Assembly: GCA_019744845.1 (NCBI GenBank)
Contig: JAIETW010000001.1
Span: 177,999 to 241,998, forward strand
DNA length: 64,000 nt
Direction of reading: 5' to 3'
Source: Patescibacteria group bacterium
GTDB taxonomy: Bacteria > Patescibacteriota > Minisyncoccia > Phycocordibacterales > Phycocordibacteraceae
Shown: positions 2,690 through 60,262 of the stretch, in pieces
Layout: every line of letters starts with the position of its first letter
Numbering within the stretch: the first letter of the stretch is position 1
Position numbers and translations under genes: made by a program
Notes under the pieces: generated by a model
Told to the model about the DNA's origin: nothing
The model's input: the letters and a program-made list of their open reading frames with translations, nothing else
The model's database searches: none

Positions 2690-3250
2690 TTATTCAGATA
2701 TGAGTTGTAAACGAAGTGCCTCTATGAGTTCCGGAAATTCCGTTTGTGGAAAAGTGCCATGTCCGAAGTGCGCGCGGTCAGTGTGTTCGTGGTAGACAGA
2801 TCCAAGCATGTCACGAATGTGTCGTGGCTCTTCAATCGGAATGAACGGATCGTCAGTAGATGCAAAAAGTATCGTCCATTGTTGATTCTTTTTTATTGCG
2901 TTCCAATTCCATGGGGTATCAAAGTACTGACTCGCCTTCTCCTCTTCGTAATTCATGTGCGTGTAGTACGCACCGACAAGTACTGATCCGAGAATTACAT
3001 TCTCTTCTGCATACCGCATCGCCGCGATTGCACCAGAAGAGTGCCCTATGAGAATCGTGTCTTCGTCTGCACCAAGTTCCTTTATGAAAGGAAGCCAGAA
3101 TTCTTTTCGCGCAAGTAGTGCATCTGGAAACTGCGTGTTAATCACCGAAATTCCAAGTTGAAGCGGTATTTCTTTTTCTAGGTACGGAGACCAGTTATCG
3201 GTCGGTGACCCCCCTCCATTTCCAGGAATAAGAATTACTTTTGTATTCAT
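2690..3250 (-). CDS. Alpha/beta-fold serine hydrolase of the YdeN/RBBP9-like family
   Basis: 186 aa. GHSSG nucleophile elbow, plus downstream D and H positions. Paralogous to the adjacent gene. Confidence 0.6.
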   Translation of the reverse strand: MNTKVILIPGNGGGSPTDNWSPYLEKEIPLQLGISVINTQFPDALLARKEFWLPFIKELGADEDTILIGHSSGAIAAMRYAEENVILGSVLVGAYYTHMNYEEEKASQYFDTPWNWNAIKKNQQWTILFASTDDPFIPIEEPRHIRDMLGSVYHEHTDRAHFGHGTFPQTEFPELIEALRLQLISE

Positions 3251-3792
3251 ACTCCCATCTGCTCTAGCGCCTCAAGTGCCTGCGGGAGTTCTGTCCACCC
3301 GTCATGTGAGCCAAGGTGTCCACCTTCATGAATCACCGTCAGTGTGCCGCTCAGTTCTTTCTCTAACATCTTTGCATCCTCAAGCGGTACAAGGTGATCA
3401 TTGTCGCTGTGAATGATTGCTACTTTTTCTACACGCTGCCGTATGGTGGCGTAGTTAAAGGGTATTATGAAGAAGTTATCTATCTTCGTATTCCCTGTTG
3501 CGTTGCAGGGACCAGATACCAACACCACTCCAGCTATCTTTACTGATGCTGTTTCCAAATATCTGAGAATCGCCGTCACACCAAGACTGTGTCCCACGAG
3601 ATATATCTCATCTCCTTCTGTGATATGTCGTGCAATCTCGTCTACCCATTCATGTTCAATAGGTTGATCTGGAGTTGGCATGACGAGTGCTGCCGCGTAC
3701 ACATCTCTTAGATCAAGCTCAGTCATGAGCCACGGACGCCATCCACCGTTCGGGGAGCCCTCAAGTCCATGGATAAGAAATACTTTCTTCAT
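3247..3792 (-). CDS. Alpha/beta-fold serine hydrolase (YdeN/RBBP9-like), a tandem paralogue
   Basis: 181 aa. GHSLG nucleophile elbow. Four-nucleotide overlap with the downstream paralogue. Confidence 0.6.
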   Translation of the reverse strand: MKKVFLIHGLEGSPNGGWRPWLMTELDLRDVYAAALVMPTPDQPIEHEWVDEIARHITEGDEIYLVGHSLGVTAILRYLETASVKIAGVVLVSGPCNATGNTKIDNFFIIPFNYATIRQRVEKVAIIHSDNDHLVPLEDAKMLEKELSGTLTVIHEGGHLGSHDGWTELPQALEALEQMGV

Positions 3793-3797
3793 GCCTC

Positions 3798-6491
3798 TTA
3801 TTCTACACGTACCGTAAAGCGAGGGTTAATTACCTTCCCTTCGTGGAAGAATTCGCCGAAGACCGTGTAAAGACCAGGACTTGGAAAGAGCACGTGCGCT
3901 TCTACCACGGGACCGAAGGTTGGTGGAGGCGGTAGGTGCGTGTGTGCGGTCGTAGAAGATACTTGAGTGACTGGTGCACCAAGTGGATGCACTTCTCCAT
4001 GGGTGTGTATGAACTCAGAGAGATCGTTCTTCACCACCGCAAGGTGCATCGCAGCAGCCAAGTATGGCTCCATGTTCAGTACATCCTCTCCGTCTTTAGT
4101 AATGCGGTAGGTGAGTGTGGTGTAGGAGTTTGCGAGCGGCAGCGGGGAGCGGAGAGTGACATCGTATCCATCAAAGCTTCCTTCCGAAGGATAGGTGGCA
4201 ATGTCATTCATCGCTGCATTCCCTTTTACGGTAATCGTGTACGTACGACTCTCCTGCTTCAGTCCATGCGCATAATCAATCGCAAGGATGTAGGTACCGG
4301 CACGTGGAAAGGTGAAGCTCCGTTCAAAGCGAGGAGCATTTGATTCATCATCAGGGTGCACGTGGAAGAATTCTTTCATATCTGCACTCACAATCACCAT
4401 ATGCACGAGCTTCTCGTGTATGACTGAGAGCACGGCAGGCTCTCCATCTGCGTCATTAATCGTGTATTCAAAGGTCACGGGAACTCCTGCAGTGATATTC
4501 GTGAGGTCGTTTGCGAATGCAATCTCTGATCCTGTCTGGGACTTCAGATACCGATACTCTCTCGCATCAGAGATGTGGAAGGAACCACCGAGCGCCATAC
4601 ACCCTTCCTCTGCGACTGAGGACACCGGAATGCCGTTACGTGCAGGAAGCATGACGTGCCAGCCATTCCCGTCTGCCAGACATTCCTTCTTGAATGAGTT
4701 CCCAAAGAGGTACTGGAGTGCCCCGATTATTTGGCTCAGGATTAACAGAGTGACAATGAATGCAATTCCATACCTGAAGACTGAATTACGCTCCTGTAGC
4801 GGCGGATATGGGCCTCTAACGAGCCTTGCAAGGTATATAGCGGCAATGATGCTAAGAATTGCGAGCGCCATCATCACCAGGGTGAAGAGATCTATGTCTC
4901 TTCCCTCGTCTTTAATGAAATCTGCCTTGGTGACGGTAAATGTTGCCCGTGCATCGTAGCCACTTTCCTGGGGCTGGATAACGGAGAGTGTGTGCGTGCC
5001 ATTGGTGATGAGAGCAAGAGGGAATACGTATCCCCCATCATATCTGCGCTCAAGCTCTAGAAGCGTTCCCTCTTCGCTTCCACCGTCTAGAGAGACGGTC
5101 GGCATGACCTTCCCTTCACTTGTAAGGAGTACCTTCTCATCCTCATGTGGTGCAGGCGCGACCGCGATCTCTATTCCCTGGTCGCGTACCGAGTATGCTG
5201 GCTGCATGCCATGCAGTGGTGGTGAGGTGATGATCATGAGTGAGGAGAAGAAGATCACCAGCACTCCTGAAGCGAACTCTGCGGGCAAGGTGTAAGACAG
5301 GAACTTACTGAACCACTGCGGACGGTATCGGTGCGCGATGAGGTGATACGCAAGAAGTGCAATTGCGACTATGAGGGATGCAGCAAGCGGAAGGAATCGC
5401 TCTCCCCAGAGAGTCGTGGAGATATTGGCAAAGTCTTTCAAGTGAAGCCAGATGATGTAAGCGCCGGTAACTCCTGCAAGACCGAAGGAAAGCGCGAGGA
5501 GTGAGAACGCTCGTGGGAATACGTCTCGGAGCTTCTCTCTGAAGGTTCTCCAGAGATACGCGACGGAGAGAATGCCGATGATTCCCTCCCACAAATCTTT
5601 TCCAATGAGATGGAATACGTTTACGAGTACACCAAGATCAGGAAGGAAGCTGCTTGCGGTCGCGTGACTTACCTTTGCGCGGTAGTACGCAAAGACAAGA
5701 AGAAGTGCAAAAAGAATCCATTCAGAGGTCGTGAACTTCTCTGCAAGCTGTATCACCTTCTTCCGGAAGAAGAACACGACTCCAATCAATGCTCCTGCGA
5801 TCATTCTGATTACCGTTGCTGATCCTGAGACTATCGCGAAGTAGAGCGAAAGCGCTTCCGCAAATGGAATCTGATTTAGATCTGCCAGTTCACTCGTTTT
5901 TAGAATGATGTGTCCCCCGCCACCAATGAGAATGAGAAGGACGCCAAGTGCAATGAAGAACGCGTACCCCTTCCGTACCAGTGCATCCTCTCGGTACTTT
6001 CTGAATACAGAGGCAAAGAGCACAATCACTCCCCATAGAATGGAGTTCCCAAGAAGCTCCACGAATATCATGAACGCCTCTGGTACTGCAGAGATCTGCA
6101 CCACCTCAAAGGAAGAAGAGTTAGAGGAAGGAATGGCAATGCCTTCTCCTATCACATACGCATATCCTCCCTTGGTGAAGTGTCCGTCGTCAGAAGACAC
6201 CACACTCCACGAGACAAAGTACGCACCGTCTTCTGCCGATGCTACTGGCACACTGAGTACATAGGGATTCTCTTCTACGACTGCCTCTCCAGTCGTGATC
6301 TCTGTCCCTGCATCGTCTTTTACCTGTATACGACTTGCCCCTGGCTCTACTCGCTCACTGAAGCGAATAGATACTTCGGTGGGCGCTTCGATGAGTACCG
6401 CGGAAGACTCTGGCACATACTCCACGGGAGTGGCGTGTGCAGACACGCCAAGCGGGAGGAGAATGATGAGTGTGATAAGTAGTGTTTTCAT
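3798..6491 (-). CDS. Copper transport/resistance fusion protein CopC-CopD with a C-terminal YtkA-like domain (YcnJ-like architecture)
   Basis: 897 aa. Signal peptide, then a CopC-like beta-sandwich whose mature N-terminus is H (SAHATPVEY) and which carries the VSWSVVSSDDGHFTKGGYAYVIG motif. This is followed by about 8 transmembrane helices (CopD-like). The C-terminal soluble His-rich region carries FFHVHPDDE and EFIHTHGEVHP. Confidence 0.6.
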   Translation of the reverse strand: MKTLLITLIILLPLGVSAHATPVEYVPESSAVLIEAPTEVSIRFSERVEPGASRIQVKDDAGTEITTGEAVVEENPYVLSVPVASAEDGAYFVSWSVVSSDDGHFTKGGYAYVIGEGIAIPSSNSSSFEVVQISAVPEAFMIFVELLGNSILWGVIVLFASVFRKYREDALVRKGYAFFIALGVLLILIGGGGHIILKTSELADLNQIPFAEALSLYFAIVSGSATVIRMIAGALIGVVFFFRKKVIQLAEKFTTSEWILFALLLVFAYYRAKVSHATASSFLPDLGVLVNVFHLIGKDLWEGIIGILSVAYLWRTFREKLRDVFPRAFSLLALSFGLAGVTGAYIIWLHLKDFANISTTLWGERFLPLAASLIVAIALLAYHLIAHRYRPQWFSKFLSYTLPAEFASGVLVIFFSSLMIITSPPLHGMQPAYSVRDQGIEIAVAPAPHEDEKVLLTSEGKVMPTVSLDGGSEEGTLLELERRYDGGYVFPLALITNGTHTLSVIQPQESGYDARATFTVTKADFIKDEGRDIDLFTLVMMALAILSIIAAIYLARLVRGPYPPLQERNSVFRYGIAFIVTLLILSQIIGALQYLFGNSFKKECLADGNGWHVMLPARNGIPVSSVAEEGCMALGGSFHISDAREYRYLKSQTGSEIAFANDLTNITAGVPVTFEYTINDADGEPAVLSVIHEKLVHMVIVSADMKEFFHVHPDDESNAPRFERSFTFPRAGTYILAIDYAHGLKQESRTYTITVKGNAAMNDIATYPSEGSFDGYDVTLRSPLPLANSYTTLTYRITKDGEDVLNMEPYLAAAMHLAVVKNDLSEFIHTHGEVHPLGAPVTQVSSTTAHTHLPPPPTFGPVVEAHVLFPSPGLYTVFGEFFHEGKVINPRFTVRVE

Positions 6492-55786: not shown

Positions 55787-56971
55787 ATGCCCTCCTTCTC
55801 CATGAAGCCTTGTGCCGCCTGTGGTGGTGCCACTGTAAGCCATGCGGCGATCTGGGTCTCTAACTCAGGTGACATGGTTGCGCTCGGATTTGCCGGGCTC
55901 CGTACTACGTGGATTGTGCGGACTCTGTCAGGAATTGGAGAATGGGCATTGTCGCTTCTTGGTCATCTCGCCTTTCATATCGCACGCATCGTGGGTGCCG
56001 TATCACTGAGCGATGACTTTTCAAAAGTACGGAGTGATCGCGCCCGCGTTATGTGGGAAGATGCGCTCCGTCGTGGAATCCCCATGGAACAACTCTTTCT
56101 ATTTGGAGCCCCTGCAGATACGTACCGTATTCGTATACACGGAAAGACCTATTTCGTTGACAGCATTCCTACCCCACCGAAGAAACAAAAAGAAGCACTC
56201 CACATAGACGATAAGATTTCGTTTAAGGCGATATTGAGGAAGGCAGGTATCGCCACTCCACGTAGCATCGGCACTACCTCTCTCAGCACCGCGAAGAAGA
56301 CTCTGAAGGAGTTTGGGACTGTGTGTGTAAAGCCACGATATGGCTCTAACGGATATCACACGTATCCTTTTGTGAAGACCGAGAAAGAGCTTGAAGATGC
56401 GTTCAAAAGCGCAAAGGAGCTCTGCTACATGGTGAGTGTGGAGGAGCATCTGGAAGGAAATGTATGTCGCGCTACCTGTATTGATGGGAAACTTGTAGGA
56501 TTTCTAGAATCACAGTACCCAACTGTCGTCGGCGATGGGGTGCATACCGTTGCAGAACTCATACAGAAGAATAACGAGGCTCGTCGTGACGGCGTGGCGG
56601 AAATTGTGGTGAACTATATGCACGAAGGCTATATCGGTCGTCGTGGCTATACACTTGAGAGCGTGCTCCCTGAAGGAGTATCTCTTCCTCTCACCTATCG
56701 TGCAGGGAGCAGCTCAGGCGGGAGTAACCGAGAATACGGCCGGAATATTCATCCGTCATTCATTCCGATCATTGAGCACGCAGCCGCACTTACCGAACTT
56801 CCTATCGTTGGGTTTGATTTGATCATCAAAGATCCACTCGCCTCCGCAGATTCACAAGCCTGGGGCTTTATTGAAGCCAACTCACTTCCCTGGATTAATC
56901 TCCATCACACACCATTTGAAGGTGAGCCAGTCAATGTCGCCACACACGTCTGGGATCTCTGGAAGGATTAA
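55787..56971 (+). CDS. ATP-grasp-fold ligase (cyanophycin-synthetase/RimK/Ddl-like). The N-terminal start is uncertain; it is possibly the internal Met near 56058.
   Basis: VCVKPRYGSNGYHTYPFVKTEKELE, followed by a Gly-rich SSSGGS loop and IVGFDLIIKD, typical of the ATP-grasp central and C-terminal domains. Confidence 0.5.
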   Translation: MPSFSMKPCAACGGATVSHAAIWVSNSGDMVALGFAGLRTTWIVRTLSGIGEWALSLLGHLAFHIARIVGAVSLSDDFSKVRSDRARVMWEDALRRGIPMEQLFLFGAPADTYRIRIHGKTYFVDSIPTPPKKQKEALHIDDKISFKAILRKAGIATPRSIGTTSLSTAKKTLKEFGTVCVKPRYGSNGYHTYPFVKTEKELEDAFKSAKELCYMVSVEEHLEGNVCRATCIDGKLVGFLESQYPTVVGDGVHTVAELIQKNNEARRDGVAEIVVNYMHEGYIGRRGYTLESVLPEGVSLPLTYRAGSSSGGSNREYGRNIHPSFIPIIEHAAALTELPIVGFDLIIKDPLASADSQAWGFIEANSLPWINLHHTPFEGEPVNVATHVWDLWKD

Positions 56972-57831
56972 CCGAAGAAGTACGAGAGCACGACTACTCC
57001 CACTGATACCAGTGTAATTCCTACGACTTGGTGTCGCTTCACCTTTTCGCGGTTTATGAAAATACCAAGCAACACTGCAAGCGCGACGTAGCCACCACTG
57101 ATCGTGGTGGCGACTGAAATAGGTACCATCGTTGCCGCAGTCGCAAATGCAATCCATGCTGCGTTATCGGCAATACTGTGTGCACCAATGGTGAATGGAT
57201 GCTTCTTTAGATCCTTGAGAATGGTCTTAGATTTACCGGTAAATATCACGACGCCTCCGGACACAATCGCGAGTGCGCCATGAGAAAACCACACGGCAGT
57301 CAAAGGAGACACCTCCTGACTTGAGACACCGACCAATACTGAGGTAAGTGCGGTACCAATGGCGGCAAGAAATGCGAGCAATACGCCTTTTTCAAGAAGA
57401 CGCAACGACGCATGATGGAAGCTTCGCATTACCACCAGGAGTGTCCCTATGAACACCAGAAGCATGAAAAAGAACTGGAGTGGGGAAAGGCTCTCTCCAA
57501 TGAACACGACACTAATCGCCACTGCCATGGGGAGCTCGAGGCCCACCACTGGCTCCACAACCGCTATTTTGCCCTGTCGGAGAGCTTCAAAGTCAAAGGC
57601 AGCACCGAGCATCACGATCAATGACAGGAGCGAGAGAAGAAGAATGTCTCCCACGGAGAGATGCGGGAGTTCTGGAACTACAAATGGAGAGAGGGCGATA
57701 AAGCCCACAATACCTATAAAGAAGAGTGCCTTTGCACTCCCCACCAAGCGAGTAGTGCGCTGAATAAGGAAGTCACCAATACCCCAAGCGATAAGCGCAA
57801 ACAAGGAAAGAGCGACCCCAAGGGCAATCAT
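56968..57831 (-). CDS. EamA/DMT-family transporter
   Basis: 10 transmembrane helices in two five-helix EamA repeats, with a WGIGDF-type motif. Confidence 0.7.
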   Translation of the reverse strand: MIALGVALSLFALIAWGIGDFLIQRTTRLVGSAKALFFIGIVGFIALSPFVVPELPHLSVGDILLLSLLSLIVMLGAAFDFEALRQGKIAVVEPVVGLELPMAVAISVVFIGESLSPLQFFFMLLVFIGTLLVVMRSFHHASLRLLEKGVLLAFLAAIGTALTSVLVGVSSQEVSPLTAVWFSHGALAIVSGGVVIFTGKSKTILKDLKKHPFTIGAHSIADNAAWIAFATAATMVPISVATTISGGYVALAVLLGIFINREKVKRHQVVGITLVSVGVVVLSYFFG

Positions 57832-59318
57832 GGTTTCGCGTAGCGCTCCAGGAATTGGTTCAAAAGATATGTGGTGTCTGATTCTGAATTATTGGATCCA
57901 AGAACAATAAATGCGAGCGGGCGTATTTCTCCTTCTACAGGCACTTCAAATACCGAAAGATCGGTTTCCTTCGCGGCAATGGTCTGCCCCACCTTTCCAC
58001 CGAAGAAGTACTTATGCGAGGTGAGGTGGTTAAGGTTGCGGAGATCAGTGAAGACACTTGCCCCATATGCGCTCCCCTTCAAGTTTCCTGAAGTGATGTT
58101 GAACACGAAGCTTCTATTGTTATAGACGTACTTCGCAAGCATAAAGAGGTCCTCTGCAGTAGAGACGTTTCCTGCATCGGCACCTGAGGGATCCACAAAC
58201 ACTGAGTCGGTCATGCCGATCGCCTTCGCCTTGTCGTTCATCCGCTGTATGAACAATGAGCGACCATAGTGTCGTGCGATCGTCTCTGCTGCTTCGTTTG
58301 AGGACTCGGTAAGGAGTGGAAAGAGCAGTTGGTAGATGCTAATCTCATCGCCTACCTTGAAGCGAGGAATAGACGTGTAGACGAGCGCCTCCTTTGGAAC
58401 CACCGCAACCGAATCAAGATTGAGATACTCCGTGGCGACAAGCGCAGTCATGAGCTTCGTAATAGAGGCAATGGGCACCACATTCCCTGCTTCCTCAGAA
58501 TAAAAGACTTGATTGTTCTTGAGGTCTGCGGTGAGGTAGCTTCCTGCAGAGAGCGGCGCAGAGAGACTAGAGTATGAGAAATTATCCGATGAGAAGTCTT
58601 CTTCAAACACCAAGACTGGCGTCCCGACATCTGCGAGATTGAACACCTTTTCTGCATCCTCCGTAGAAAGACGAATACAGCCTCCAGAGTATGTGCTTGC
58701 CACTGCTTCCCCTCCTGGATAATACGGCCAGCCATGAATAAAGAAATTTCCTTGGAAGGCCATGCTCCATGGCTGGTACACCTTTCCGAAGCTAGAGAAA
58801 TGCGACTCTGCTTTCGTCGTAATGGAGTAGAGTCCTGCGGGCGTCTCCCACCATGACCCTTCACGCCCCTTGGTCATAATAGGCACAGAAAGAGCGAGCT
58901 CTCCTGCCTTATAGACGTTCAGCGTCATTGCTGAAAGGTCCGCTTCAATGAGATCAGATTTCTTGTCTATAAAATCTTGCTTCACCGTTGCAAAGAACTC
59001 AGGATTTGAGAGTGCAGGCTCTTCACCGTGTGACAGTGGTGCGTGCGTCCAATCCGAAGGGATTGGGAGCTGCGCGCCTTGCTGTTGCATCGCGACCGTC
59101 ACCAAAAAGGTTCCCGCGGTCAAAATCACCACCCCAAGCACCGCCGCAACCATAGACGCGGGAGATAGGGGGGACCGAGCTGTGTAGGGACTCTGTTTCA
59201 ACGCAGCCGTAATGTCGGCCTGTTTCCATCCTGCCGCTTTCAGTTCTTTTTGAACTTCACGCTTACTCGCGCCGCCTATATAGCGGTCCTCAATGTACTG
59301 CGGAAGGTTGTCACTCAT
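57828..59318 (-). CDS. Bifunctional L,D-transpeptidase (YkuD) plus serine-type D-Ala-D-Ala carboxypeptidase (PBP5/S11-like) fusion, membrane-anchored
   Basis: N-terminal transmembrane helix. YkuD motif HGWPYYPGGEAVASTYSGGCIRL (HG...SxGC(I)R). C-terminal serine-peptidase motifs SITK (SxxK), SSNE (SxN) and KVGQT (KTG-like). Confidence 0.6.
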   Translation of the reverse strand: MSDNLPQYIEDRYIGGASKREVQKELKAAGWKQADITAALKQSPYTARSPLSPASMVAAVLGVVILTAGTFLVTVAMQQQGAQLPIPSDWTHAPLSHGEEPALSNPEFFATVKQDFIDKKSDLIEADLSAMTLNVYKAGELALSVPIMTKGREGSWWETPAGLYSITTKAESHFSSFGKVYQPWSMAFQGNFFIHGWPYYPGGEAVASTYSGGCIRLSTEDAEKVFNLADVGTPVLVFEEDFSSDNFSYSSLSAPLSAGSYLTADLKNNQVFYSEEAGNVVPIASITKLMTALVATEYLNLDSVAVVPKEALVYTSIPRFKVGDEISIYQLLFPLLTESSNEAAETIARHYGRSLFIQRMNDKAKAIGMTDSVFVDPSGADAGNVSTAEDLFMLAKYVYNNRSFVFNITSGNLKGSAYGASVFTDLRNLNHLTSHKYFFGGKVGQTIAAKETDLSVFEVPVEGEIRPLAFIVLGSNNSESDTTYLLNQFLERYAKP

Positions 59319-59401
59319 GCGGTTAATCTTACTACGCTATTGCGTAAATCGCCTCTGGAAAACTTCATAGGTGGCGTCCTCTGGACGCTATACTTCTGTA
59401 T

Positions 59402-60262
59402 ATGAGCGAGCCGGTGATTAATGAACGAGAGCGACAGGCAGCACTTTCGCTCACTAAAAATCAGGTACCTATTCGGGAGTGGTGGTTTAAGGATAATGCA
59501 CTTCTGACATTTGCGTTTAATACGAGCTCTGCCACCGTCCCTGAAGGGGAACGGTTCATCGTGCGTGCAGCCGCAGACGCAAAGAAACTGATTACGGATC
59601 CTGAACTCAAGAAACAAGCGGATATTCTCATTCATGAGGAAACGGCGCATGCACAGATGCATGACGCATATAACGGGTATCTAGACGCACAGGGCTTCCC
59701 CGCGACCAAACACGTACAAGAAACAAAGGTGCTACTTCTCTTCTTTGAGCGTGTCTTCTCTCTCAAAATGCGGTTGGTAACCTGCATGATTATTGAGCAC
59801 TTTACGAATACCTATTCAAAACAGGTGCTTGATATTGGTGTGCTTGAGGGTGAAGACACAGACGAGCGTATGGATCGGGTGTGGAGTTGGCACTGTATAG
59901 AAGAGATGGAACACCGCTCCACTGCCGTAGACCTGTATCGCGCGCTTGGGGGTGGATACTTTCTCCGCGTTTCTATTGGTGCCTTTGTGAGCGTGGCATT
60001 CTTCGTAGCGCACGTACGCTGTTTGGTAGATTTCATGACCGCTAAGAAACTATTCTGGAATGGCACTATCTGGAAGAAAGGGCTCCCCTATCTTCTTGGG
60101 AAGAAAGGAGTGTACTACTTAGTACTTAAGTACTGGCTCACCTACTTCAAGCCAGGATTTCATCCTACCGACATCCCTATTGAAAATAGGTTTAACAAAC
60201 AGCTCCACCACTACCACATTGAAGACGAGCTGGTAGGGTACTTTAACGTACCCGTACAGTAA
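59402..60262 (+). CDS. Predicted metal-dependent hydrolase, family uncertain
   Basis: His/Glu clusters HEETAHAQMH and EEMEHRS. Confidence 0.35.
   Translation: MSEPVINERERQAALSLTKNQVPIREWWFKDNALLTFAFNTSSATVPEGERFIVRAAADAKKLITDPELKKQADILIHEETAHAQMHDAYNGYLDAQGFPATKHVQETKVLLLFFERVFSLKMRLVTCMIIEHFTNTYSKQVLDIGVLEGEDTDERMDRVWSWHCIEEMEHRSTAVDLYRALGGGYFLRVSIGAFVSVAFFVAHVRCLVDFMTAKKLFWNGTIWKKGLPYLLGKKGVYYLVLKYWLTYFKPGFHPTDIPIENRFNKQLHHYHIEDELVGYFNVPVQ

Follow-up and report, generated by a model that had tools for sequence, protein, structure and literature searches.

A membrane-anchored protein of the Parcubacteria group that carries a YkuD domain and a Peptidase_S11 domain on one polypeptide

To our knowledge, the mutual dependence of L,D-transpeptidases (LDTs) and D,D-carboxypeptidases is known only for separate proteins. 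The demonstrations come from a few pathogens, in which this dependence is the basis of β-lactam resistance. The closest described system is found in Escherichia coli, in which YcbB (LdtD), an LDT with a YkuD fold, and PBP5 (DacA), a D,D-carboxypeptidase of family S11, act in sequence as two proteins; YcbB works on tetrapeptide stems, does not accept pentapeptides, and relies for its donors on PBP5, which is "necessary and sufficient" for their supply, so that the reasoning of the original prediction, that an LDT depends on a D,D-carboxypeptidase for its tetrapeptide donors, has experimental precedent (PMC5089857). Ldtfm of Enterococcus faecium (1zat, 3zg4, and 6fj1) and LdtMt2 and LdtMt5 of Mycobacterium tuberculosis have other accessory domains and lack an S11 domain. 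The window described here, i.e. the whole stretch of 64,000 nucleotides that was analyzed, is from an uncultured bacterium of the Parcubacteria group and encodes a protein in which the two families are present on one chain. The gene and its features, together with the adjoining gene, are as follows (minus strand throughout).

57828 to 59318, minus strand: whole gene including the stop codon, an intact open reading frame with an ATG start for a membrane-anchored YkuD plus Peptidase_S11 fusion protein of 496 residues
59184 to 59318, minus strand: small cytoplasmic three-helix domain, residues 1-45 (AlphaFold2 helices 2-14, 19-28, and 33-42)
59082 to 59162, minus strand: single transmembrane helix (N-in anchor), residues 53-79, from hydropathy and an AlphaFold2 helix
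58608 to 59021, minus strand: extracytoplasmic YkuD (L,D-transpeptidase-fold) domain, residues 100-237
58734 to 58736, minus strand: codon of His195, catalytic His of the YkuD domain (FFIHG), aligned with IH of Ldtfm
58677 to 58679, minus strand: codon of Cys214, catalytic nucleophile of the YkuD domain (SGGCIRL), aligned with SHGCIN of Ldtfm
58554 to 58607, minus strand: inter-domain linker, residues 238-255, conserved in length and sequence (Asp245 and Tyr249 invariant)
57837 to 58553, minus strand: single-domain Peptidase_S11 (low-molecular-weight PBP), residues 256-494, from Pfam, PDB profile, and Foldseek searches
58455 to 58466, minus strand: SxxK box, Ser285-Ile-Thr-Lys288, with nucleophilic Ser285 (Ser285, Thr287, and Lys288 invariant)
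58296 to 58304, minus strand: SxN box, Ser339-Ser340-Asn341 (Glu338, Ser339, Ser340, Asn341, and Glu342 invariant)
57987 to 57995, minus strand: non-canonical "KTG" box, Lys442-Val443-Gly444, on strand β3, followed by Gln445-Thr446
56968 to 57831, minus strand: downstream EamA-family transporter gene (Pfam EamA, 80 bits), with an ATGA stop/start overlap with the fusion gene

The original prediction of a single polypeptide holds: one unbroken frame contains both domains, and all of the motifs quoted for it are present, HGWPYY at residues 195-200, SGGCIRL at 211-217, SITK at 285-288, SSNE at 339-342, and KVGQT at 442-446. The product is a type-II membrane protein; both catalytic domains lie outside the membrane, and the short linker between them is conserved in length. 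The predicted membrane anchor is evident as a hydropathy maximum at residues 55-77 (Kyte-Doolittle maximum of 2.44 over 19 residues from residue 57), within the AlphaFold2 helix of residues 53-79; 8 Lys and Arg residues precede this helix and none are present in residues 78-100. The cytoplasmic domain is modeled by AlphaFold2 with block-mean pLDDT values of about 78-94 for residues 1-40 and its consensus is conserved in most close homologues and missing from some; in Pfam it has no match below an E-value of 0.03. Residues 243-249 of the linker have a pLDDT below 50, and 123 of 186 family members have a spacing of 71-72 residues from the catalytic Cys to the catalytic Ser. A scan of positions 56800 to 59500 for promoters and terminators gave sites that were no more numerous than in shuffled sequence.

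The fusion had been treated as a peculiarity of one genome, but it represents a large family that is widely conserved in the Parcubacteria group. The same two-domain architecture is present as a single open reading frame in all 120 homologues listed (50-92% identity) and at 80 of 80 genome loci retrieved; at least 252 GTDB species representatives encode relatives, and of the 504 representatives of 50%-identity clusters that match at E ≤ 1e-30, the best 150 span both domains. In an alignment of 41 homologues that reaches down to 50% identity, the catalytic residues of the two halves are either invariant or conserved to 90% or more, and about 187 two-domain proteins, with identities as low as about 34%, retain these residues. 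This retention in both halves indicates that selection acts on both active sites. Some family members have a third, CapA-like (PGA_cap) domain added to the module. Existing automatic names, "L,D-transpeptidase family protein" or "D-alanyl-D-alanine carboxypeptidase," cover one domain only, and the bifunctionality is therefore invisible in databases. Full-text literature searches yielded no paper that treats a YkuD-S11 fusion or the LDTs of CPR bacteria; the fusion is an uncharacterized variant of known enzymes that has apparently never been studied.

Both domains are found by Pfam at scores well above the gathering cut-offs and far outside the range of chance matches. The YkuD match (PF03734) covers residues 123-237 and profile positions 3-146 of 146 (E 3.7e-17, 63.7 bits against a cut-off of 23.4), and the domain also includes an N-terminal helix (residues 106-118) and an invariant loop, GSWWETPAG (154-162). 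Its β-sandwich fold is similar to that of solved LDTs, and its nearest relatives by sequence are bona fide peptidoglycan L,D-transpeptidases, 5bmq (1.4e-9) and Ldtfm (6fj1, 3zg4, and 1zat; 2e-7 to 1e-6). The catalytic motif reported for this half is present with its catalytic residues intact: His195 and Gly196 are invariant in 41 of 41 aligned homologues, as are Gly212, Gly213, Cys214, and Arg216, and about 173 of the 187 two-domain proteins of the family have the box [ST]GGC[IV]RL. The box is SHGCIN in the Ldtfm and LdtMt enzymes, as compared with SGGCIRL in the fusion protein.

In the other half, the Peptidase_S11 match (PF00768) extends over residues 256-452 (E 2.5e-28, 99.6 bits against a cut-off of 27.6). 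A β-lactamase-like, non-PBP domain is excluded, as the Beta-lactamase2 model scores only 30 bits against 99.6 for S11 and the top structural matches are all low-molecular-weight PBPs. In a PDB profile search, the best matches are Bacillus subtilis DacB (3mfd, 7e-31) and the D,D-endopeptidases 6muq and 6azi, and Foldseek returns the same set (E 2-4e-17). No match to the PBP5-type C-terminal domain (PBP5_C) was obtained, the protein stopping at residue 496 directly past the catalytic domain; alignments with PBP5 and PBP6 are confined to the catalytic domains of those two proteins. The best NCBIfam model is PRK11669 (NF008668), for the D,D-endopeptidase PbpG/PBP7, at 112.4 bits against an equivalog cut-off of 294. 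Carboxypeptidases and endopeptidases thus tie in rank by sequence and fold (NCBIfam, PDB profile, and Foldseek). The original assignment to a D,D-carboxypeptidase is well founded as regards an S11 serine peptidase, but "carboxypeptidase" is an assumption, because the domain is equally close to D,D-endopeptidases and to DacB.

The statement that this half has the full triad of serine-peptidase motifs is likewise accurate in part. The SxxK and SxN boxes are present, SSN being found by regular expression in 158 of 187 family members, but the third box, which pairs with GGKTGYT in the alignment with DacB, is KVG. Lys442 and Gly444, two-thirds of the canonical K-T/S-G signature, are kept with Val as the middle residue, and homology is not in doubt; Lys442, Gly444, and Thr446 each occur in 90% or more of the homologues aligned. 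The claim was overstated in that the middle residue is relaxed across the family (Asn in 81 members, Val in 27, Thr in 18, Ile in 8, and Ser in 5). Because the fused KTG box lacks Thr or Ser while stand-alone S11 paralogues of the same lineage keep KTG or KSG in 9 of 9 cases, the fused S11 domain may have an altered substrate or altered kinetics.

The gene neighborhood differs from that originally described. The EamA and ATP-grasp genes, which had been placed upstream (55787-57831), are differently arranged: EamA is downstream on the same strand, and the ATP-grasp gene is encoded on the other strand, convergent to the fusion gene. In tblastn searches with the neighbors in the window, EamA adjoins the fusion gene at 3 of 80 related loci and is absent from the closest, 92%-identical locus (L001), and an ATP-grasp homologue is nearby at 3 of 80 (72% identity in L001 and 29-30% in L002 and L004), these neighbors being confined to the three or four closest genomes; Metal_hydrol, PurK, and PurE were found near the fusion gene at 0 of 80 loci. 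A conserved locus with EamA, ATP-grasp, or Metal_hydrol (3, 3, and 0 of 80 loci) is thus excluded, and the suggestion of a linked envelope-remodeling locus is not supported, since its composition is not conserved. Subsets of the related loci have cell-wall genes as neighbors: a stand-alone S11 gene and mraY at 12-15, DUF4015 at 10, Amidase_3 at 4, M23/LysM at 3, and VanW at 3. The presence in some genomes of a separate canonical S11 gene nearby indicates that the fused S11 domain is not simply the sole supplier of tetrapeptides in the cell. The 64-kb window also codes for proteins with T4SS_pilin domains.

The likeliest function, which we hold with somewhat better than even confidence, is 3-3 cross-linking by the YkuD half with tetrapeptides that the S11 half has produced by trimming pentapeptide stems. 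We infer both activities, their order, and their coupling from domain content and conserved residues. In such a mechanism the S11 domain (Ser285, with Lys288, Ser339, Asn341, and Lys442) would act as a D,D-peptidase on peptidoglycan stems, cleaving D-Ala5 off pentapeptides to leave tetrapeptide stems. The YkuD domain (Cys214, with His195 and Arg216) would take these tetrapeptides as acyl donors, releasing D-Ala4, and move the stem onto the side-chain amine of residue 3 in a neighboring stem to form a 3-3 cross-link. The fusion would hold the substrate-making enzyme beside the substrate-consuming one, at a fixed distance from the membrane.

In a second, rather unlikely reading, the protein edits existing cross-links: the S11 half would be a D,D-endopeptidase like PBP7/PbpG that cuts 4-3 links, and YkuD would re-join the freed tetrapeptide donor and acceptor as a 3-3 link, so that links would be converted or repaired with no new synthesis. 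Of the NCBIfam models, PRK11669, a D-alanyl-D-alanine endopeptidase, matches the S11 half best (112 bits), although this score is far below the cut-off; the D,D-endopeptidase structures from Yersinia and Enterobacter (6muq and 6azi) are among the joint best matches, but the top profile match is DacB, a carboxypeptidase. The S11 domain has no PBP5 C-terminal domain, like PBP7, yet single-domain S11 carboxypeptidases (M. tuberculosis Rv2911 and Listeria PBPD2) are also among the matches. The relaxed middle residue of the KTG box suggests binding of a leaving group unlike that of canonical carboxypeptidases; however, PbpG-type structures keep a canonical KTG, which counts against endopeptidase function. 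The separate canonical S11 genes of some fusion-bearing genomes favor an editing role, as does the remark, in the discussion of PMC10980060, that the cutting of 4-3 cross-links by endopeptidases yields tetrapeptides which LDTs can use.

It is improbable that the two halves trim stems in two steps, the S11 domain removing D-Ala5 and the YkuD domain, as an L,D-carboxypeptidase, taking off D-Ala4; the tripeptide stems so produced would limit cross-linking or shape the cell, and 3-3 links would not be made. YkuD enzymes with protein-anchoring activity exist, and by analogy with LdtA-C and Lpp of E. coli the YkuD half might use tetrapeptide stems made ready by the S11 half as attachment points for a surface protein, e.g. 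a pilin or an S-layer component. Here the donors would again be tetrapeptides and the logic of the fusion would be unchanged, and the presence of T4SS_pilin-domain proteins in the window is in keeping with such a role; however, no candidate substrate gene is conserved beside the fusion gene at the related loci, and among solved structures the nearest relatives are cross-linking LDTs from Gram-positive bacteria and actinobacteria, making anchoring very unlikely. Still harder to credit is an S11 half that is a D,D-transpeptidase, giving an enzyme that forms both 4-3 and 3-3 links: the Streptomyces K15 D,D-transpeptidase (single domain, 262 residues) and Staphylococcus aureus PBP4 are significant matches (about 1e-16), but they rank well below DacB and PbpG, and no sequence feature is specific to transpeptidation. 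Finally, a frameshift or mis-assembly joining two separate genes can be dismissed, because the uninterrupted architecture recurs in all listed homologues and all retrieved loci, from independent assemblies of many samples and lineages, with a conserved inter-domain linker.

Conservation of the fusion in hundreds of Parcubacteria genomes constitutes independent "Rosetta-stone" evidence for the coupling of LDTs and D,D-carboxypeptidases and suggests that a major uncultured lineage builds its walls with 3-3 cross-linking as a regular step; the protein also offers a compact, expressible model enzyme for the hand-over of substrate between two active sites. It is conceivable, though rather unlikely, that the fused enzyme is the main self-sufficient cross-linker or cross-link editor of the Parcubacteria group, with a diverged S11 pocket feeding a rigidly coupled LDT and with the CapA-like domain linking some members to another envelope polymer. 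Were this so, 3-3 links would be dominant or obligatory in a very large uncultured lineage.

Among known systems, DacB (3mfd), the PbpG-type enzymes 6muq and 6azi, Rv2911/DacB2 (4p0m and 4rye), and PBPD2 (5zqa) match residues 256-494 best in sequence and fold. The single-domain S11 peptidases resemble the fusion protein in having an SxxK box, an SxN box, and Lys and Gly in the third box, but they stand alone, and the third box, GGKTGYT in DacB, is KVG in the fusion and mostly KNG in its family; the structure of DacB also has an extra C-terminal domain that is missing from the fusion protein. PDB entry 4xxt, compared by its title only, is a fusion of a predicted Zn-dependent amidase/peptidase of the cell wall hydrolase/DD-carboxypeptidase family with ErfK, in which the carboxypeptidase part is, by name, a zinc enzyme like VanY/M15 and not a serine peptidase of family S11. 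Class A PBPs combine a glycosyltransferase and a D,D-transpeptidase on one polypeptide. Like the proposed mechanism, these bifunctional enzymes place two consecutive activities of peptidoglycan assembly on one membrane-anchored chain; their folds and reactions differ from those of the fusion protein, and the resemblance is one of analogy only.

The sequence at 57828-59318 is a single unbroken ORF in which Pfam recognizes both a YkuD (L,D-transpeptidase) and a Peptidase_S11 domain above their cut-offs, bearing out the original prediction of one polypeptide that joins an L,D-transpeptidase (LDT) domain to a serine-peptidase domain; Beta-lactamase2 scores only 30 bits. Every motif quoted in that prediction is present, and the layout of the protein, with limits from Pfam and from an AlphaFold2 model of the complete chain (mean pLDDT 84.1, pTM 0.70), is as follows.

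57828-59318 (-), fusion gene, 496 aa, ATG start
Residues 1-45 (59184-59318, -), small three-helix cytoplasmic domain (AlphaFold2)
Residues 53-79, predicted transmembrane helix (AlphaFold2)
Residues 81-102, spacer, low confidence (AlphaFold2)
Residues 106-118, helix against the YkuD beta-sandwich (AlphaFold2)
Residues 123-237, YkuD domain (Pfam, 63.7 bits, cut-off 23.4); beta-sandwich 123-238 (AlphaFold2)
Residues 195-200, HGWPYY motif, YkuD half
Residues 211-217, SGGCIRL motif, YkuD half
Residues 238-255, short inter-domain linker (AlphaFold2; pLDDT <50 at 243-249)
Residues 256-452, Peptidase_S11 domain (Pfam, 99.6 bits, cut-off 27.6); full alpha/beta domain to residue 494 (AlphaFold2)
Residues 285-288, SITK motif, S11 half
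Residues 339-342, SSNE motif, S11 half
Residues 442-446 (57981-57995), KVGQT motif, S11 half

The protein has a single membrane anchor, as originally proposed, with the hydropathy maximum at residues 55-77 and the modeled helix at 53-79. Eight Lys/Arg residues lie ahead of this helix and none directly behind it, which fits an N-in topology with both catalytic domains extracellular. No significant Pfam match was found for the predicted domain of residues 1-45, whose family consensus is MYHKQLVxH..G....I..EL..DGW...DI.EAF.Y; in the alignment it is kept in most close homologues and absent from some. A PBP5-type C-terminal domain (PBP, penicillin-binding protein) is absent from the fusion protein.

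All 120 matches listed from a search of 5.8 billion proteins have the YkuD + S11 architecture at similar length (50-92% identity), and their sources, where named, are MAGs of Patescibacteria, Paceibacterota or Parcubacteria. A pattern-limited scan that took a single genome for each GTDB species found relatives encoded in at least 252 species. The 80 related loci that were kept come from Nomura-, Taylor-, Colwell-, Lipton-, Zambryski-, Wolfe- and Kaiserbacteria and further Paceibacterota (of these, Liptonbacteria and Nomurabacteria were checked in the NCBI taxonomy, which places both in the Parcubacteria group), the closest being locus L001 (JBBTSU010000010.1), at 92% identity. A library clustered at 50% identity contains 504 representatives at E≤1e-30, and among the best 150 of these all but a few align unbroken over both domains, down to 34% identity. 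The wide recurrence of the same architecture therefore identifies the fusion as an old, conserved family and not as a frameshift or a product of mis-joined genes. Its recurrence in homologues, loci and cluster representatives leaves virtually no chance of an assembly artefact, and the homologue, species and cluster counts likewise rule out a quirk of this one genome.

Four related proteins of 769-798 aa (P0184, P0195, P0222, and P0228) are triple fusions in which a CapA-like PGA_cap domain (PF09587; about 235-245 bits) lies C-terminal to YkuD and Peptidase_S11, whereas in the fragment P0257 PGA_cap is N-terminal, ahead of YkuD. A triple-fusion locus bearing PGA_cap is found at L081:8001-10343. 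These proteins suggest that the YkuD-S11 module is functionally linked to a CapA-like enzyme.

In an alignment of 41 homologues, the invariant residues are H195, G196, G212, G213, C214, and R216 in the YkuD half and S285, T287, K288, S339, S340, and N341 in the S11 half; R466-P467 is likewise invariant, and K442, G444, and T446 are conserved at ≥90%. K442, G444, T446, and R466-P467 presumably include the positional counterparts of T217 and R248 of PBP5, a lead only. In a motif census of about 187 two-domain family proteins, [ST]GGC[IV]RL was found in about 173, S[ILV]TK in about 175 and SSN in 158; the third PBP box, K-V-G in the fusion protein, is KNG in 81, KVG in 27, KTG in 18, KIG in 8 and KSG in 5. 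Because this box is mostly not KTG, the earlier description of a full triad of serine-peptidase motifs is only approximately right: the SxxK and SxN boxes stand, but the middle residue of the third is relaxed across the family. KTG or KSG is retained in 9 of 9 stand-alone S11 paralogues of this lineage. Judged from these motifs, the fused S11 domain may bind the leaving group of its substrate differently.

The activities that we infer, with somewhat better than even confidence, are that the S11 half would trim pentapeptide stems to tetrapeptides and that Cys214 of the YkuD half would form an acyl-enzyme and then 3-3 cross-links. The functional precedent for such coupling, by analogy with Escherichia coli, is solid: the donors of YcbB are tetrapeptides, not pentapeptides, and PBP5 is the necessary and sufficient source of tetrapeptides for YcbB (PMC5089857). 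The catalytic Cys and Ser are 71-72 residues apart in 123 of 186 family members, and D245 and Y249 within the linker are invariant among the 41 aligned homologues; the fixed distance and invariant residues argue for a defined spatial relationship between the domains, as opposed to a loose tether, across a linker that AlphaFold2 models with low confidence.

The top profile match of the S11 half is Bacillus subtilis DacB (7e-31), followed by the D,D-endopeptidases 6muq (5e-30) and 6azi (3e-27); Foldseek ties all three at 2-4e-17, and among NCBIfam models the PbpG endopeptidase equivalog scores highest, with 112 bits where its cut-off is 294. These comparisons place the S11 half as near to carboxypeptidases as to endopeptidases. 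It is possible, if unlikely, that the S11 half is an endopeptidase and that the fusion protein turns 4-3 cross-links into 3-3; it should be noted that a carboxypeptidase or an endopeptidase would each supply the tetrapeptide donors required by an LDT. A profile of the YkuD half alone matched 5bmq (1.4e-9), Enterococcus faecium Ldtfm (6fj1, 3zg4, 1zat; 2e-7 to 1e-6) and LdtMt5, and returned no Csd6- or Pgp2-type L,D-carboxypeptidase at E≤1; the L,D-carboxypeptidases Pgp2, Csd6, and Bd1075 and the amidase DpaA scored 11.6-10.1. These comparisons favor a genuine transpeptidase, short of proof. We consider it distinctly improbable that the YkuD half is an L,D-carboxypeptidase in a fusion protein that trims stems to tripeptides. 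There is very little likelihood that the YkuD half anchors a surface protein onto peptidoglycan, and marginally less that the S11 half is a D,D-transpeptidase.

An EamA exporter and an ATP-grasp ligase had been placed upstream in what might be a linked envelope-remodelling locus, but the gene order is different.

56968-57831 (-), EamA gene, downstream of the fusion gene on the same strand, ATGA stop/start overlap
55787-56971 (+), ATP-grasp gene beyond EamA, on the opposite strand and convergent with it, 4-nt overlap
Upstream of the fusion gene, divergent, PF10118 metal-dependent hydrolase (Pfam)

Nor is the proposed linkage supported. Of the 80 related loci, 3 have EamA beside the fusion gene, L001 not being one of them as it lacks EamA, and 3 contain an ATP-grasp homologue; in loci L002 and L004 the ATP-grasp gene has the same position but is only 29-30% identical to that of the window. 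The similarity of the stand-alone ATP-grasp protein to cyanophycin synthetase (TIGR02068, 148 bits, cut-off 850) and to GshAB-type ligases is confined to their ATP-grasp parts. Past the ATP-grasp gene lie ftsA, ftsZ, and trxB, and on the other side purK and purE. Among the 80 loci, scpA, scpB, a stand-alone canonical S11 gene and then mraY follow downstream in 12-15, a DUF4015 putative glycosyl hydrolase lies upstream in 10, and Amidase_3 + PG_binding (4 loci) or M23 + LysM (3 loci) occur nearby. A protein with a VanW domain, recently described as a second L,D-transpeptidase family (PMC10980060), adjoins the fusion gene in 3 loci, including L009:9523-10389. The remainder of the window holds housekeeping genes and a low-GC restriction-modification island, with no further peptidoglycan synthase among the proteins scanned. 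Two window proteins have T4SS_pilin domains (PF18895; 27259-28686 (-) and 38684-39172 (-)), the larger also with a thrombospondin type 3 repeat, and at 2690-6491 (-) two tandem Ser_hydrolase (PF06821) genes adjoin an 897-aa protein whose sole recognized domain is an N-terminal CopC.

Fused proteins are present in public databases under names that reflect one domain only. No paper on a YkuD-S11 fusion, or on LDTs in CPR bacteria, was found in full-text searches of a collection with few subscription journals. PDB entry 4xxt, by its title, combines a zinc D,D-carboxypeptidase-family domain with an ErfK domain and is a different kind of fusion. YkuD LDTs and S11 peptidases are textbook enzyme families with a known functional dependence; the fusion is real and conserved, yet mechanistically it is what a specialist would expect from its two domains.
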